Shown piece by piece: positions 1,735-8,970 of a stretch of DNA of 64,000 nucleotides. The notes below the pieces were generated by a model, which was not told the origin of the DNA, ran no database searches, and saw only the letters and a program-made list of their open reading frames with translations. The stretch comes from Lama guanicoe (lineage: Eukaryota). Where the stretch lies: positions 1,021,103 through 1,085,102 of the forward strand of contig MU053520.1 in the NCBI GenBank assembly GCA_013239625.1, given 5' to 3'. The translations under genes and the position numbers were made by a program. Within the stretch, counting starts at the first letter, position 1. Each line of letters begins with the position of its first letter.

Positions 1735-2903
1735 TGACATACATCTCAAAAATGTTCTCCTAGGACAGTCTACCCAAGCAATAGAAATAAAAGCAGGAAT
1801 AAACAAATGGGACCTAATGAAACTTACAAGCTTCTGCACAGCAAAGGAAACCACAAGTAAAACAAAAAGACAACCTACAGATTGGGAGAAAATTTTTGCA
1901 AATGAAACCAACAAATATATAGGCAGCTCATATGACTTAATAAGAAACAACCAAACAACCCAGTCCAAAAATGGGCAGAAGATCTAAACAAGCAATTCTC
2001 CAAGGAAGAAATACAAATGATCAATAGGCACATGAAAAATGTTCAATATCGTTAATTATCAGAGAAATGCAAATCAAAACTACAATGGCCATCATTCAAA
2101 AATCCACAAATGACAAATGCTGGAGAGGCTGTGGAGAAAAGGGAACCCTCCTACGCTGCTGGTGGAAATGCAGTTTGATACAGCCACTGTGGAAAACAGT
2201 ATGGAAATTCTTCAAAAGACTAGGAATAGACTTACCATATGACCCAGTAACCCCGCTCCTGGGCATATATCCAGAAGGAACCCTACTTCAAAAAGACACC
2301 TGCACCCCAAAGTTCATAGCAGCACTATTTACAATAACCAAGACATCGAAACAGCCTAAATGTTCATCAACAGATGACTGGATAAAAAATAAGTGGTATG
2401 TTTATACAATGGACTACTATTCAGCTATCAAAACTGACAACATAATGCCATTTGCAGCAACATGGTTGTTGCTGGAGAATGTCATTCTAAGTGAAGTAAT
2501 CCAGAAAGAGAAAGAAAAATACCATATGAGATGCTCATATGTGGAATATAAAAAAAAAAAAAGAAAAAAAAAAAAAAAAGAGGGAAAGAAAGAAAGAATA
2601 AATAAATACAAATGAGAAACAGACTCACAGACATAGAATACAAACTTGTGGTTGCCAGGGAGTGGGAAGGGACAGATTGCAATTTCAAAATATAGAATAG
2701 ATAAACAAGATTGTACTGTATAGCACAGGGAAATATATACAAGATCTTATGGTAGCTCACAGAAAAAAAATGTGACAGTGAATATATGTATGTTCATGTA
2801 TAACTGAAAAGTTGTGCTCTTCACTGGGATTTGACACAACATTGTAAAATGATTATAACTCAATAAAAAATGTTTTAAGTGGGGGTCTAAAAAAGAAAAA
2901 AGA
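1735..2903 (+). mobile_element. 5'-truncated LINE-1 (ORF2 C-terminus, 3'UTR, A-tail)
   Basis: ORF 2067-2615 has L1 ORF2 C-terminal motifs ([35 protein letters not shown]). AATAAA is at ~2862. The TSD is aagaaccattctc (1722-1734) / aagaactattctc (2904-2916). Confidence 0.95.
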
Positions 2904-3323
2904 AAGAACTATTCTCCTATACTCACATTGACTATCCTGGGTTTGGGGAGACAGACCTGATTCCAAACATTCTCTCCACATTACCTTCCAAGATTATTGT
3001 TTCTTATCAGATTTAAAAATGTTGGGGTAAAGTGGGGAATTCATAAAATAAAGATAGGACATACATACTTGAACAAATCTGCTTTCCTTCTCATTCCTCC
3101 TGTCTTCCCCTCCTCTCCTCACAGAGGATGGCTAATCTCATCAAGCTGATGAAGAAAATGTGGTCTAAATTATACAATTCACACTACCATGTAAATGGCT
3201 GGCTTGGAATTGTATTAAGTCAGCTAATCATATTCCCTTGTTAAAAGCAGCTTGTTAAATTAAATGAATGGATACTTTAATTAAAAGTATTTCAGCCAAG
3301 TAGATTATCAGAGCTGGGAGGCC

Positions 3324-3807
3324 TGACACAAGCCCAGACTTGTTCTGCTCACCATATAACAGGTCAATAAATCAAGAAGCAAGCTGTTGAAGCAAGGAGT
3401 CACAGAAAGCCAGAAGACCAAGAAAATGCTGGACTCATGTCCTAGAGAACCATCTTACCCAAGTCAGAATTCAGGTTCCTTTTATATTAAGAGAGGAGGG
3501 GGTGTAGTTGGTTGTTACAAATTTCTTGGTGTCAGAATCCTTTGATCTTGCAGCTATCCAGATAGGTAAGGTCACAATGTTTCTGTAAACCTCCAATAAG
3601 ACAGATCTTATTCTTTGTTCTGCAACTTTTTGTCTCTATATGAATGGGAAAATGTTATATCCTTGAAGGTCAGAGCCTTGAGAATGGGCTATCTTGTATA
3701 TTTCCTTATATGTTTCCAAGTTGGCTCCATTAAGCATGACTAAGTACAGGTAACAGAGCAAAAGGAACATCTCTAATATGGAGTCAGATTCATTCTTCCC
3801 TATTTCA
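3324..3807 (-). repeat. 3' LTR of provirus
   Basis: It aligns by eye with 8396-8914 and is preceded on the minus strand by the purine-rich gacagtggggact (PPT-like, ~3808-3820). Confidence 0.92.
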
Positions 3808-4175
3808 AGTCCCCACTGTCAATGTCCATTCCACAATCTTGTGGAAAAAGGGGTGATGACTATTCTGGCTACTTCCTTCTGAACAGGGGTGATGAGGGGG
3901 TGATCATGGAATGGAGTTGATCAGCCCTGGAAAGAAAACATTCCTTAGAATCTTTAGTCACTAGCGCAATCTTCTTTGCTTCTTCATCTACAACTTCTTG
4001 AACCTGATGAAGTCACTTAGTACTTTGTTTAACTTGGGGTTTTTGTTCCAGTTCCCAATACAAACCTATTAATTTTACCTTTCTGACTGTGCCATAATTA
4101 CAATAGATTCCTCTGTTATTTATTTGGAAAAGATTAAATGAATAGTTTGACACTTTTCCAGCTATAAAAAAATTA

Positions 4176-4660
4176 TTTAAGGAGGGCATTACCACTCTGG
4201 AGGGTTTTTTTTTTTTTGCTGGGGTGGGATATGGGTCTGCCCATCCTGAAAAAGAGTCCACAAACACTAGCAGGTACATGAAACTTCCTGCAGCTTGAGT
4301 CATTTGAGCCCTCTGTGGGGCAGGTTCCTCTGTGTTGAGTCCCCATTGCGGGAGGTCTGACAGCAATCTTTAGGTTATTTTTAGCACAAATCATGCAATT
4401 CTGGGTTACTCACTGAATGATTTTTTGTAGGTTAGGCCCCCCTTCCATAATTTTGATACCACTGCAAGGTGGTATCTCTCCCATAATGAGTACTATTATG
4501 AATGCGCCATAGTATAGTGTCCAGGAATGTCTCAGGGATCAAGACAATTCCTTGTGCACTACATGGCCAGCCAGGCAAGGCATAATCAAGAGTGAAACCC
4601 CACTCTTTGGCCTTCTCTCTGTCCTTTTTCTGAATATGCTGCCTGGCATTTTGACAGGTC
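4176..4660 (-). pseudogene. pol: ERV integrase N-terminal and core remnant
   Basis: HHCC-like pieces (IHNSTHYG ... ICAKNN) and a core motif YLLVFVDSFSGW; it is frameshifted and truncated. Confidence 0.85.
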
Positions 4661-4699
4661 ATTCTGTGGAAGAAGGGATTCTAACATAGCTTGATAGTT

Positions 4700-5726
4700 G
4701 CCTTAGCAAATCACCCACAATTGGAGTAAAAGTCCATTGTACGATACTAAGTTTCTTAGGTTCCCTAGCCAACATTTCCCTAAACAGGGTAGGGAACTTC
4801 TTAACTTCTTGAGGTAGGACTGTCCAGCAATTCTGTTGGACTACTTGTGTTTTGGGGTCCTGCCACGCAGAAGCAAATAAGAATGCAGGAAAAAAAATCT
4901 TTCAAGTCCCAAAGTGAGAGCCAGCCATATTTTCCTGGATTAGTTGTGAGCAGGGCATATGGATTAGGCACTAACAGGGTGTAAGTCTTGGACCACTTCA
5001 TTAATAGCCCTCAAGTCTTGGACAAAGTGATACTCTGCTGAGTTTGGTTTTCTGCCTGGGAGAACAAGGGTGTTGTACGGGGACCTATGGGGTGGAATCA
5101 GTCTTGTTTTTGAGAAGTTTTCTAAAATTGGCTGAATTCCCTTTTGGACCACTTGCCTCTGAGGATATTGATTTATATTAGGTGCCCGATCCTCCCTTTT
5201 TAACGGGATCTGCATTGGCCATGTGGCTTTGGCCTTCCCCAGCGTGCCATCAGCCCACACTTCTGGACTTACCCTGTAGTAGACCCCGAGGGGAAAGAGC
5301 TCTGTCTCCTCCTCTGGGGTTTTCATGAGTGCCATCTGTGGACTTAAAGCACGTTCTGGTGGAACTCTGATGTTAAGTTCTTCTGGCAAAAATGTTACTT
5401 GAGCATTTAACTTACAAAGGAGCTCTCTGCCCAAAGAGGGATTGGGTACTCTGGCACATATAAGAAACTATGATTCAGGGTGAAGTCTCCTAGTTGGCAT
5501 TCTGGAGGTTGTTAAGAATGAACAATTTTGTAATTCTCAAGAGACTCCCATGACCGGGATGGACTGAGGTATTTTCTGTGCCAAGTTAGTGTTTGAACAC
5601 AGAGTATGTTGCACCAGTATCACTCAGAAAGTCAGTCAGCTCATATTTCATTGTCAGTTTGACCCAGGATGTCTGTGGGGTAATTGGGCATGGGCGTCTC
5701 AAGTCCAAGGGAGCCCCCAGGCTTCT
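4700..5726 (-). pseudogene. pro-pol: ERV protease and N-terminal reverse transcriptase remnant
   Basis: FLSDTGATYSV (DTGA at 5610-5621), GRELLCKLNAQVTF, SPYNTLVLP..YHFVQDLRAIN, VPNPY, DLKD and WTVLPQ. The YxDD region is degenerate at ~4710-4730 and no RNase H is seen. Confidence 0.92.
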
Positions 5727-7974
5727 TCATTCATAATCAGAGTGCTTCTTTCTTTCTACTATGTGAGAAGCTCTCATCTTTCTTTTATGGTTTTCCTAGA
5801 TCAGATTCATAAGCAGGTAAAATACATATGCTGAGGGGTGCCATCAACAGAGCTATGCATTAGAAAGATAAGAGGCATCTCATTGGTAGAGCATTGATAC
5901 AAGAAGCCACCTAAAGGAAGCCCCATCACTAGTCCCAGCCCAGAAGTTCTCAAGACTTTCCAATGCTGTGGCCACATTATGTGGAAATGCCTTTGCAAGG
6001 ATAGAAGAAGATTCAGCTCTTGCTGTGGGGAAACTTACTGCATCAGTTATGCTCACCAGAAAGGACATAGCAATAAACACTGGTCTTTCCCATACATCAG
6101 AGAGAACTGTAACTCTTCCTGAGATGAACATTCCTGCTACTAACATAAATTTTGCTCCAACGTGTACAAGATATTTTCTAAATACCAAAGATGCCAGAAG
6201 TCAGAGCGTAACATCCAAAGATCGTACCAGTATTGCTGGCTCCATTCTTTTCAGCCTCTGTGGGGGGGAAAAGTTTCCACATCATGGAAACTAAGTTAGT
6301 GAATGCTTCAGCAGCATTTAAAATCTGTATTAGACAGATTCAGTACAAATATCTGTTCTCTTGAAAGCTACCTGGGCCCTTACACTTCCTGGAGGGCCAT
6401 CACTTTTTAATGTGCAAGACTAGGGGCAGGTCCTAAGAGCACATAGCATCTTGTAGTGATTAAGTTTCCAAAAACCAGAAGTAATTTCCTCAGCTGTGGT
6501 ATTTTTTCCCTGAGGTGGCCCAATGGTGAAGAAATGGCATAGCACAGTGTCAAACCCAAGAATACCAGTCCCACATATCCAGCCAGTAAATTAAACTGCT
6601 CCAAAACAAAGAGGGACAGCGTAGGGTCAAGGAAGCTAAAATATGAGCTGAGTGAGGTAATGATGAAGGCTGTAAGGGCAACCTTGGGTAAAGTGATCAG
6701 TTTCCAGAATGAGTTGTTCCCTGTTTAACACTTTAAAACAAACACCTACCAATTGAGAAGGGTTCCTTCCAAATGCACGATCTAATTTTTGCAATTTTTT
6801 CACATTTACCATTCTAGCATTTTCAGGGGCCTTGGATCTGCTCTAGACCTGATGAATTCGTTCCAAAAATTCAGAGAGATCTTCATTTGTTTTTTGCTGG
6901 ATTCCTTTAATTTTGTTAAACCCAGCCCATTGGCTATTTGCATTTAGGACCCCTGGGGTTAATAGTGTAGGGGAAATTGTCCTGTGCCAGGAGTGGACCC
7001 CCGTCCAAAGTGGGTGCCCTATCAGGTCTTAGATGACAATACTAGACCAGGCCCCTGTGCCTCAGGGACTAACACAGGATTTTCAATTGATACCTATAAG
7101 GAGGGGAAGCCAGTCTGACCACTTCCTGAGCCCCAGCATTGGCAATCGGGGCTGGTTGTGTAGGAACGGGAGGCACTGGAAAGGGTGGATACCTTGGCAT
7201 AGTGGCTGCAGCGGATGGGGCAGCTAGCTCAGCCAGAGGAGCGAAGGTCTGAAGCAACATAACCTAACTCGTGTTCTAGTCCTTTTCTTATTTTCCCTGA
7301 TATAACAGTACAAATGCTTGCACATAGGGCATTCCATCATTCTTCCCTGATTTTCACAGAATATCTATAATTGCAGGATTGTATAAAGACACCATTCCTC
7401 AACATTTTATTGTAAAACCATAAATGGCAACTGATCCTCCCTAACCATTTTGCCTTGGCATCAACCAACCAGGCTGAATTCTGGGCTGAGGCTTTTAGTG
7501 ATTGTAGGAACCAAGTGGAAGCTTTCCATTCTCTCACTCTCAGACAAGAACAGACAGAGTTGGCTTTCTTTGTTTCTTTGTTTGTTGTTTTTGTTTATCT
7601 ATTTCTTTCCTCCATTTGCCATCAGTAAAAATTTTAAATATCACAAAACTGACTTGGAGACATGGAACCAGAACAAAATGTATGAGAAACCCAAAGGACA
7701 AACAGAAAACCCTAAATAAACCCTCACATTTATTTAGTGTTGGGGTTTTACATGCACAGTGACACAGCAGACCACACATGATATAATTAACACAGCAAGG
7801 GTGGCAGTATATGAAGGTAACCCTGCATAGATCCCTTGTTGGAGATCCAAATGGATACTGTAGCCACACATTGTTCATCTTCCTCTTAGTCATGGGTTCA
7901 TAGATGTAATCAGGCGACTTATCCGAAATGTGTCTCAGAGGACTTTCTTTAGGGAGAGTTGAAATAGTCCCCAT
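5727..7974 (-). pseudogene. gag: ERV gag remnant (MA, Pro-rich region, CA), interrupted by inserts
   Basis: MGTISTLPKESPL..NNVWLQY, YTILQL*IFC..PYVQAF, a Pro-rich PPY segment, MHR-like IQQKTNEDLSEFLERI and KKLQKLD..PSQLV..FKVLN. The TGA at 5727-5729 is in frame with the protease. Confidence 0.88.
5793..6723 (-). pseudogene. SLC18B1: Circularly permuted, intronless SLC18B1 retrocopy (circRNA-derived)
   Basis: The peptides SFWKLITLPKV..FLDPTLSLFVLEQFNLLAGYVGLVFLG..LLVFGNLIT..LLGP..HIK are followed by REQIFVL..EAEKNGASNT..YLVHVGAKFMLVAGMF..SSSILAKAFPHNVAT..GGFLYQ..YESD. They match human SLC18B1 as I recall it, but in permuted order, with frameshifts and small deletions. Confidence 0.92.
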
Positions 7975-8372
7975 TTTTTTAAAGACAGAAATACAAGACA
8001 AACAAAACACAAGTAGTTCACACAAATGCTAGCATCCATTCATGAAACAAACCAGCTCACAAACTGAGTCCAAGTCCAGCAACTATTTCCTCTCTCCAGC
8101 AGGGAACTCCGCTCAAATATGAAACAAATCAGTTTATTCCACAGGAAAAAGCCCCAAGCAGAGAGAAGTAGACTTTCCACCTGTACACACGGGAGCAACT
8201 TATCCTACTGCTTGGAGCCCGTCAGCTCCCAGCTGTTGAGTCCTTCTCCAACTGCCAAGCACTGGGGCAGCTGGTGCCACTTTGGGGAATTTTGAAGGGA
8301 AGACCCTCAGGACAAAGTGTCCTGGCAGCTGCTGGGGCCTTAAACCAAAATTCCCCAACCAAACAGCAAGGT

Positions 8373-8390
8373 CTCTGGCTATCTTAGCCA
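8373..8390 (-). promoter_or_regulatory. Degenerate primer-binding site
   Basis: tggctaagatagccagag lies a few bases inside the 5' LTR. It loosely resembles a tRNA-Arg PBS (TGGCGAGCCAGCCAGGAG), but the tRNA identity is uncertain. Confidence 0.55.
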
Positions 8391-8395
8391 AAATT

Positions 8396-8914
8396 TGTTA
8401 CCGAGTACAAACTTATTGTACTCAGTGTACAACAGGACAATAAATCAGGAGGTGAGGGGTTGGGGCAAGGAATAGTGACTTTATGCAAAAAGCCAGCAGA
8501 CCAAGAAGGCAGGGGACTAATGTCCTAGAAAACTGTCTTACCCAAGTTAGAATTCAGGCTCCTTTTACACTAAAAGGGGAGGGGGCAGGACTGGATATTG
8601 CAAACTTCTTGGTGTCAGAATCCTTTGTTCTTACTGCTGTCTACGTAGGTTAGGTCACCATGTTTCTGTAAACATTCCACAAGACAAATGTTATGCTCTG
8701 TTCTGCAACTTTTTATCTCTATGTGGGTGGAATAGTGTTATATCCTTAAAAGTCAAAGCCTTGAGAATGAGCTAACCTGCATATTTCAGGTTATAGGCAA
8801 TATTCTTTTACAAAAGGTGCAGAACCAGCAGGATTAAGCACAGCAAACAGAGCACAGGGTTAGAGATAAAGCAACAGATCTAATATGGAGTCAGATTTGT
8901 TCTTCCCTATTACA
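8396..8914 (-). repeat. 5' LTR of provirus
   Basis: It has tgtta...taca termini and is ~80% identical to 3324-3807 over a ~250-bp hand-aligned block. Confidence 0.92.
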
Positions 8915-8970
8915 GGCCTACCTGGGGTCCAACTGATCTCTTTAACCTCTCAAGTTTGTCTGAGGAGCCA

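Follow-up and report, generated by a model that had tools for sequence, protein, structure and literature searches.

Background

Retroviruses that transduce host genes acquire host sequence by recombination during reverse transcription, and the resulting viruses are replication-defective and helper-dependent. Gene capture has also been reported for ancient endogenous retroviruses (ERVs), among them those of crocodilians (PMC4299795). In the mouse, 33 high-confidence copies of the circular RNA (circRNA) circRFWD2 have been recorded; they are absent from the rat, long terminal repeats (LTRs) are enriched in their flanks, and the mechanism behind them was called mysterious, the report leaving open how a circle without poly(A) is reverse-transcribed and inserted (Dong et al., Cell Res 2016, PMC4897178). 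Among the matches listed in our search of the circRFWD2 literature, nothing on mechanism goes beyond this 2016 letter. Here we analyze a stretch of 64,000 nucleotides of the Lama guanicoe genome (GenBank assembly GCA_013239625.1, contig MU053520.1, positions 1,021,103 to 1,085,102 of the forward strand), which we refer to in full as the window, and in which a gammaretrovirus-like provirus carries an intronless copy of the transporter gene SLC18B1 with its exons in permuted order. We read this insert as a probable copy of a back-spliced circle of SLC18B1 exons 2 to 9 that was taken up by a retrovirus, and we compare it with the systems named above.

The SLC18B1 insert and its back-splice junction

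The insert lies on the minus strand at window positions 6723-5791 and was compared with its parent gene, which is found on contig C5673 of the same genome. It holds the parent exons in the order 7 (from base 10), 8, 9, 2, 3, 4, 5, 6 and the first bases of 7, as placed by alignment to the parent exons and, for the junction, by the parent splice borders:

6723-6596, minus strand: exon 7 from base 10 (6713-6723 is a crossover zone)
6595-6497, minus strand: exon 8
6496-6404, minus strand: exon 9
6404/6403, minus strand: back-splice junction, where exon 9 ends and exon 2 begins
6403-6256, minus strand: exon 2
6255-6171, minus strand: exon 3
6170-6097, minus strand: exon 4
6096-5961, minus strand: exon 5
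5960-5808, minus strand: exon 6
5807-5799, minus strand: first 9 bases of exon 7

A search of the animal's own genome with positions 5793-6723 returned 32 matches, consisting of the window itself, seven short pieces of C5673 and 24 other pieces at 22 loci, and a finer comparison gave eight C5673 blocks of 77-89% identity (expect values, E, from 1e-17 to 9e-44). Bases 1-317 of this query correspond to C5673 168292-164753 and bases 318-916 to C5673 182543-171952, which is upstream in the gene, and the order is thus swapped. At the protein level, a 105-residue open frame at 6407-6724 matched 378 proteins at E<=0.001 (best E 8e-40), and among the 120 of these that were listed nearly all those with a source name were called MFS-type transporter SLC18B1 or solute carrier family 18 member B1. 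Mapping of a camel SLC18B1 protein (P0005) and four other orthologues on C5673 identified the eight blocks as exons 2-9 of the canonical transcript. Each of the eight is preceded by AG and followed by GT; their lengths, from exon 2 to exon 9, are 140, 96, 74, 148, 157, 137, 102 and 92 nt, a sum of 946 nt, and joined together they give one fully open frame of 314 residues. Canonical exon 1, at about C5673 183748, encodes only ~15 residues.

The junction that reverses the exon order is exact. On the minus strand of the window ...cacattaaaaa ends at 6404 and gtgatgg begins at 6403, and the corresponding borders in the parent are ...AAGAG/gtaact (CACATTAAGAG/gtaact) at the exon 9 donor and ...caag/GTGATGG at the exon 2 acceptor. 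The back-splice predicted from the parent, ...CACATTAAGAG/GTGATGG, and that of the window, ...CACATTAAAAA/GTGATGG, are of equal length and differ by two G>A changes; the exon 9 donor meets the exon 2 acceptor with zero bases gained or lost, and the seven forward exon joins of the insert are likewise all exact. The insert has neither introns nor poly(A), its sense is that of the viral genes, and viral sequence abuts both of its ends. Much of this had been anticipated in a preliminary description of the locus made from its letters alone. The two SLC18B1 blocks in swapped order that it reported, and ascribed to a single gene, are the eight exons of the C5673 gene; its limits of 5793-6723 were right to within a few bases, the ends lying in zones of microhomology (6723-6713 and 5798-5791); and its statement that the insert lacks introns and poly(A) and ends where it began is borne out, no sequence having come from outside the circle. 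It also set the jump at 6404/6403 correctly at the end of exon 9 and the start of exon 2; going by the human exon end, it counted one G>A change where there are two.

The restriction to exons 2-9 holds across the genome. The camel SLC18B1 protein gave 85 matches, of which 12 belong to the parent gene, one to a distant paralogue (26% identity) and 72 to proviral loci, and all 72 of the latter lie inside residues 31-355, i.e., exons 2-9; exon 1 and exon 10 onward (residues 1-30 and >355) found a match in the parent gene only. When intron 9 was compared for inverted repeats with the alternative, short intron that precedes exon 2, only matches of 9-19 nt came up, at the level of chance. The Camelus dromedarius protein model P0005 (468 residues) includes an extra coding exon at C5673:182985-183068, between canonical exons 1 and 2, that is unused in the SLC18B1 models of pig, lemur and cat.

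The insert does not appear to encode anything in its present setting. The 946 nt of exons 2-9 do not divide by three, and directly past the exon 9/exon 2 junction the SLC18B1 frame meets a stop codon. Reading on from gag leads into the insert in the +1 frame and ends at 6636, after ~30 codons; in the parent exon, too, this frame soon reaches a stop. Among the insert copies there are ~2-3 nonsynonymous codon differences for each synonymous one, the ratio to be expected if nothing constrains them. Ten frames of the window, including those of SLC18B1, matched no Pfam family at E<=0.01, the pieces being too short and too decayed. Because the gag frame is entered in +1 and stops, and because the codon differences reveal no constraint, the insert is to be regarded, as far as its sequence indicates, as a passenger from which no piece of the transporter would be made and which bears no sign of a selected host function.

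Copies of the insert in the genome

The same permuted insert is present at 23 loci, inside the same gammaretrovirus-like provirus; as two of them, the short contigs L044 and L052, match parts of L006 at 100% identity, ~21 loci count as independent. All 23 are colinear with the rotated circle, 11 of them aligning without a break over positions 10/11 to 946, and more than one turn was seen in none. The back-splice is free of indels at 19 of the 23 loci, which are all 19 that cover the site (L027, L036, L044 and L049 are without that part), and most copies retain the parental ...AAGAG/GTGATGG there, L003 being the sister copy nearest to the parent at this junction. The 5' virus/host junction occurs at 19 loci (L009 breaks off just within it, and L048, L050 and L052 are without the part), as does the 3' host/virus junction (L027, L044, L049 and L052 are without it). 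The viral sequence on both sides of the insert is 66-83% identical among copies, and L003 and L006 have the element in common and differ in their flanks. Since the loci carry the same three junctions inside the same provirus, these sequences indicate that the capture happened once, in the viral lineage, and then spread with the virus; the shared junctions likewise imply that it was the virus that raised the number of SLC18B1 copies, and that the circle was not retro-copied again and again. The preliminary description had spoken of a fossil at this one locus, and the copy is real, but it is one of ~21 proviral copies; misassembly, which it had named as a possible objection, is excluded by the recurrence of the back-splice junction at 19 of the 23 loci.

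Two of the copies, L038 (contig C3854) and L050 (C8017:424k), are related to one another through a long common branch, have a GC content of 0.53 and 0.46, respectively, against a median of ~0.42, and keep open frames of 174-176 residues in the SLC18B1 frame. Selection on these frames was considered and rejected on account of 55 nonsynonymous against 19 synonymous codon differences and of their enrichment in GC, and the frames look like the outcome of GC-biased drift rather than a co-opted gene.

Crossovers and replaced viral sequence

Related proviruses that lack the insert are found at L033 (with its 98%-identical duplicate L034), L042 and L047. Their homology to the window ends at 6722/6723 and restarts at 5797, and between these points they hold 175-184 bp of viral sequence, because of which we regard the insert as having replaced ~180 bp at the end of gag. 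The location inside the gag of an ERV that had been proposed stands, although the simple entry that went with it does not. The replaced stretch has the capsid-like part on one side and the protease/reverse-transcriptase part on the other, a place where gammaretroviruses encode nucleocapsid, and its translation in three independent insert-free copies contains, by eye, a decayed Cys/His pattern; it may represent the remains of a nucleocapsid zinc knuckle. A zinc knuckle in the replaced stretch of L033 had no Pfam match at E<=10.

The two crossovers are located as follows:

6713-6723, minus strand: 5' virus/host crossover zone, CAGGGAACAAC in the window and CAGGGAAACAC in most copies
5791-5798, minus strand: 3' host/virus crossover zone, TAGGAAAA in the window and CAGGAAAA in most copies

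At the 5' junction of most copies viral ...GTTAAACAA is followed by CAGGGAAACAC TCATT... of exon 7; positions 10-20 of the host exon read CAGGGAAACAC, and the insert-free L047 has ACAGGGAACAAC at the same viral place. At the 3' junction the copies pass from exon 7 ...GTCTGATCCAGG into AAAACAAT..., and insert-free relatives read AAGGAAAATAAT; the host motif here is CAGGGAAAC, as compared with viral AAGGAAAAT in the insert-free L033 and L042. Both crossovers thus fall in one A/G-rich host motif, CAGGGAAAC (exon 7 bases 10-18), with ~6-9 common letters each, and the host part amounts to 946 nt +/- at most 8, depending on how the common letters are assigned. As both crossovers fall in the same host motif, the insert would correspond to one turn of a 946-nt circle, +/-8 nt, which agrees with the earlier estimate of a unit of ~0.95 kb copied once.

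Insert-bearing copies (~21) are commoner than confirmed insert-free relatives (L033/L034, L042, L047 and L041), and the latter are more diverged from the window (66-74% identity, against 73-83% for insert-bearing copies). In the insert-free L041 the end of gag is joined to a point near window position 4946. L033 (C8017:823k) and L034 (C8017:322k) are 98.2% identical over 3.9 kb including their flanks, in opposite orientation and ~500 kb apart, and stem either from a recent inverted segmental duplication or from a duplication in the assembly.

The provirus

The provirus of the window is 5,591 bp long, is without env and has gaps in pol. Its parts are:

8915..8918: target-site duplication GGCC on the 5' LTR side, repeated after the 3' LTR (a 4-bp match that alone is weak)
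8396..8914, minus strand: 5' LTR, which starts with TG and ends with CA (aligned to 3807-3335)
6724..8395, minus strand: leader and decayed gag with a capsid-like part, 66-83% identical with >30 loci of the genome
3808..5790, minus strand: pol-side remnant with internal deletions and no env (reverse transcriptase match in the frame at 4964-5467)
3324..3807, minus strand: 3' LTR, by alignment to the 5' LTR
3320..3323: target-site duplication GGCC on the 3' LTR side, the same four bases as 8915..8918

The LTRs (8914-8396 and 3807-3324) are 79% identical, with a Kimura two-parameter (K2P) distance of 0.245. The frame at 4964-5467 matches the reverse transcriptase of Moloney murine leukemia virus (MLV) with E 3e-17, as compared with 0.009 for that of human immunodeficiency virus 2. 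A target duplication of 4 bp is typical of MLV-like integration; the GGCC duplication is modest evidence here, and the LTR ends were placed by eye. On the strength of an MLV-type reverse transcriptase, the LTRs and the GGCC duplication, the sequence supports a classification of the provirus as a gammaretrovirus-like (class I) ERV. The residues encoded at 6843-7028 weakly match a gammaretroviral Gag/capsid chain (E 0.016), and the gag pieces gave no Pfam match. The stretch at 4013-4369 is integrase-like by eye only, with no match in Pfam and none in PDB at E<=0.1, and positions 8381-8395 past the 5' LTR (aattt tggctaagata...) contained no primer-binding site assignable to a tRNA.

The protease/reverse-transcriptase stretch at 4486-5465 is present in the window copy, L029 and L038 and absent from many sister copies, among them L002, L004, L005 and L009; in L003 and L006 the sequence past 5465 passes straight into the LTR. 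Because the copies differ in the presence of this stretch, several deletion derivatives of the insert-bearing element have, on this comparison, spread through the genome, and the element is predicted to have needed helpers to do so. Beside the provirus, on the plus strand at window 2028-2615, lies an open frame of 195 residues with a Lys-rich end, followed by A-rich sequence, which by eye looks like the 3' end of ORF2 of a long interspersed nuclear element 1 (LINE-1).

Age and donor lineage

K2P distances between the inserts and today's parent exons are 0.10-0.34, mostly 0.14-0.20; among the inserts the median is 0.22, and nine of them make up the one supported subfamily of a star-like tree. 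Mammalian neutral rates are ~1.2-2.2e-9 per site per year, with which the LTR distance translates, very roughly, into ~55-100 million years. Protein trees were built from 19 of the 23 copies, with X at breaks and the four fragmentary loci dropped, together with 26 orthologues that were chosen by hand among the 120 listed proteins so as to cover a range of taxa. The 19 longer copies form one clade (FastTree support 0.99; 97 in the Shimodaira-Hasegawa-like approximate likelihood ratio test, SH-aLRT, of IQ-TREE), which nests in a group that also includes camelids and the other artiodactyls (SH-aLRT 89).

Diagnostic residues place the donor more closely. At six camelid-specific sites the copies have 78 ancestral and five camelid states; at three artiodactyl-specific sites they have 25 derived and two ancestral states, one site holding an intermediate residue; and at three sites specific to pig, ruminants, hippo and whales they have 44 ancestral and four derived states. 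Capture in the recent lineage of this genome itself is disfavoured, by 31.7 log-likelihood units and with p 0.04 in the approximately unbiased (AU) test. Placements of the copies as sister to camelids, as sister to other artiodactyls or outside both are indistinguishable in AU tests (p 0.6-0.67). Given the divergence and the diagnostic residues, the capture would have occurred near the base of Artiodactyla, the donor having been either an early artiodactyl or an animal from very early in the camelid line, and the event would not be camelid-specific in origin.

Origin of the insert

What is observed, namely a permuted spliced structure, an exact junction at splice sites, the replacement of viral sequence, junctions common to the copies and an old age, can be accounted for as follows. 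A gammaretrovirus-like virus replicating in an early artiodactyl would have co-packaged a back-spliced circRNA of SLC18B1 exons 2-9 (946 nt). While minus-strand DNA was being made, the reverse transcriptase would have jumped, at an A/G-rich site close to the end of gag, from the viral RNA to a similar motif in exon 7 of the circle, 10-20 nt from the start of that exon. After going once round and reaching its point of entry again, it would have jumped back onto a similar motif of the viral RNA that lies ~180 nt further upstream. The product would have been a replication-defective provirus with one turn of the circle in place of the putative nucleocapsid stretch, which helper viruses would then have carried to ~21 loci, the window provirus being one of these. 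Retroviral RNase H degrades the template behind the reverse transcriptase, and the circle would therefore have been open at the entry point when the enzyme returned, forcing a second template switch; we infer the length of a single turn to be due to this cutting, just as we infer the circular template itself and its packaging.

We assign a probability of roughly 0.75 to the proposal that the template was a back-spliced circle of SLC18B1 exons 2-9 captured by a retrovirus, because a spliced segment in viral sense ends where it began, contains only exons 2-9 and has exon 9 joined to exon 2 at their splice sites. Several points weigh against this proposal. No circSLC18B1 was found in the literature, and the publications that name both SLC18B1 and circRNA do not, as judged by their listed entries and a set of passages, appear to describe such a circle. 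The microhomologies are short (~6-9 nt) and are taken from copies that are 15-30% decayed, and the zinc-knuckle assignment, made by eye, depends on a decayed pattern. Above all, a linear SLC18B1 RNA with repeated exons (...9-2...), produced by intragenic trans-splicing or by a tandem duplication of exons 2-9 in the donor, would yield the identical exon 9/exon 2 junction, so that the structure fits the circular template that the preliminary description had put forward while the circular topology is a matter of interpretation. Two template switches guided by homology would be enough in that case, since a single host motif, which resembles two viral ones, contains both crossovers, and a copy of one unit could come from a linear template by homology alone. 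Intragenic trans-spliced RNAs are reported to be a known confounder of circRNA calls (PMC10450196). Such an RNA is nevertheless an improbable source, for exon 1 and exon 10 onward have left no trace in the 72 non-parental matches, the present parent gene holds exons 2-9 in a single copy, and an end within +/-8 nt of the start is what a circle cut during copying predicts, whereas a long linear template forces no stop.

Capture of an ordinary linear SLC18B1 cDNA that was later brought into permuted order within the virus, by a duplication followed by deletions, would require only one rearrangement, as all the copies have one ancestor, and retroviral genomes do rearrange; but its breakpoints must hit the exon 9 donor and the exon 2 acceptor exactly, with no base gained or lost, and at none of the 23 loci do the exons run in linear order or have additional ones beside them, which makes this course of events very unlikely. 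That the insert is an assembly artefact or a chance resemblance can practically be dismissed in view of the same junction at 19 loci on different contigs and of exon matches with E down to 9e-44. Given the permuted order of the SLC18B1 part and its non-coding state in its present context, the template was probably not an mRNA, and a selected host function is not indicated.

Comparison with known systems

No publication was found on this locus, on an SLC18B1 circle or on a retrovirus-borne circRNA copy at the level of its junctions. SLC18B1 and C6orf192 were not found in the searched supplementary text of PMC4897178, whose tables may lie outside that text, and SLC18B1 did not occur in 12 of the 16 files of the circFL-seq supplements. 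Nothing related, as judged by titles and abstracts, was found in literature pairing SLC18B1 with endogenous retroviruses. The virus family may already be catalogued in Dfam or Repbase without the circRNA reading. We tentatively put forward the insert as the first junction-resolved case of retroviral circRNA transduction, in which RNase H would force the end after one turn and a single capture in the artiodactyl stem followed by helper-aided spread would explain every copy, a combined claim about which we are more doubtful than about the circular template.

If this is true, the question left open for the mouse would have a concrete answer for one case: template switches at short homologies, made within a retrovirus, brought in a circle, which was copied for one turn and multiplied by the virus. 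One capture followed by viral spread would then probably explain the LTR-flanked mouse circRFWD2 copies as well, which are predicted to have the same anatomy, and the family described here should be common to pigs, ruminants and whales. It is further predicted that gammaretroviral particles package circRNAs and that an RNase H-proficient enzyme gives one-turn recombinants. Counts of "circRNA pseudogenes" can reflect one event, and the locus, on the circle reading, would preserve an SLC18B1 back-splice product from roughly the early artiodactyl radiation.

The locus resembles, and departs from, each of the described systems in different ways. Like LINE-1 processed pseudogenes, the insert is an intronless copy of host exons, but it has no poly(A) and no long target duplication, has viral sequence at both ends and is permuted in its order. 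As is the case for the crocodilian ERVs, a germ-line retrovirus family carries a host-derived segment; for those ERVs the listed summary gives no sign of a back-spliced or permuted capture (PMC4299795). As in transducing retroviruses, spliced host sequence in viral sense replaces viral genes between LTRs and its spread is helper-dependent; unlike theirs, the SLC18B1 part is permuted, is out of frame with gag and reaches a stop after ~30 codons, and the expression of the captured part as a (fusion) protein with a host function, which marks that group, is not found here. The likeness to the mouse circRFWD2 copies is the closest, with a reversed, non-colinear junction between a splice donor and an upstream acceptor, spliced sequence of circle exons only and no poly(A), which, together with a matching circRNA in RNA data, are the features by which circRNA retrocopies were recognized in the mouse (PMC4897178), and further with many copies and LTRs around them. 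The present case differs in its gene, in its artiodactyl lineage and in being much older (LTR K2P 0.245), and its anatomy is resolved in that the insert lies in a provirus, replaces ~180 bp of gag, has microhomologies at its ends, comprises one turn and has junctions common to its copies. The SLC18B1 insert appears, then, to be of the same kind as the circRFWD2 copies, to which it adds another gene, another lineage, a greater age and a resolved anatomy.

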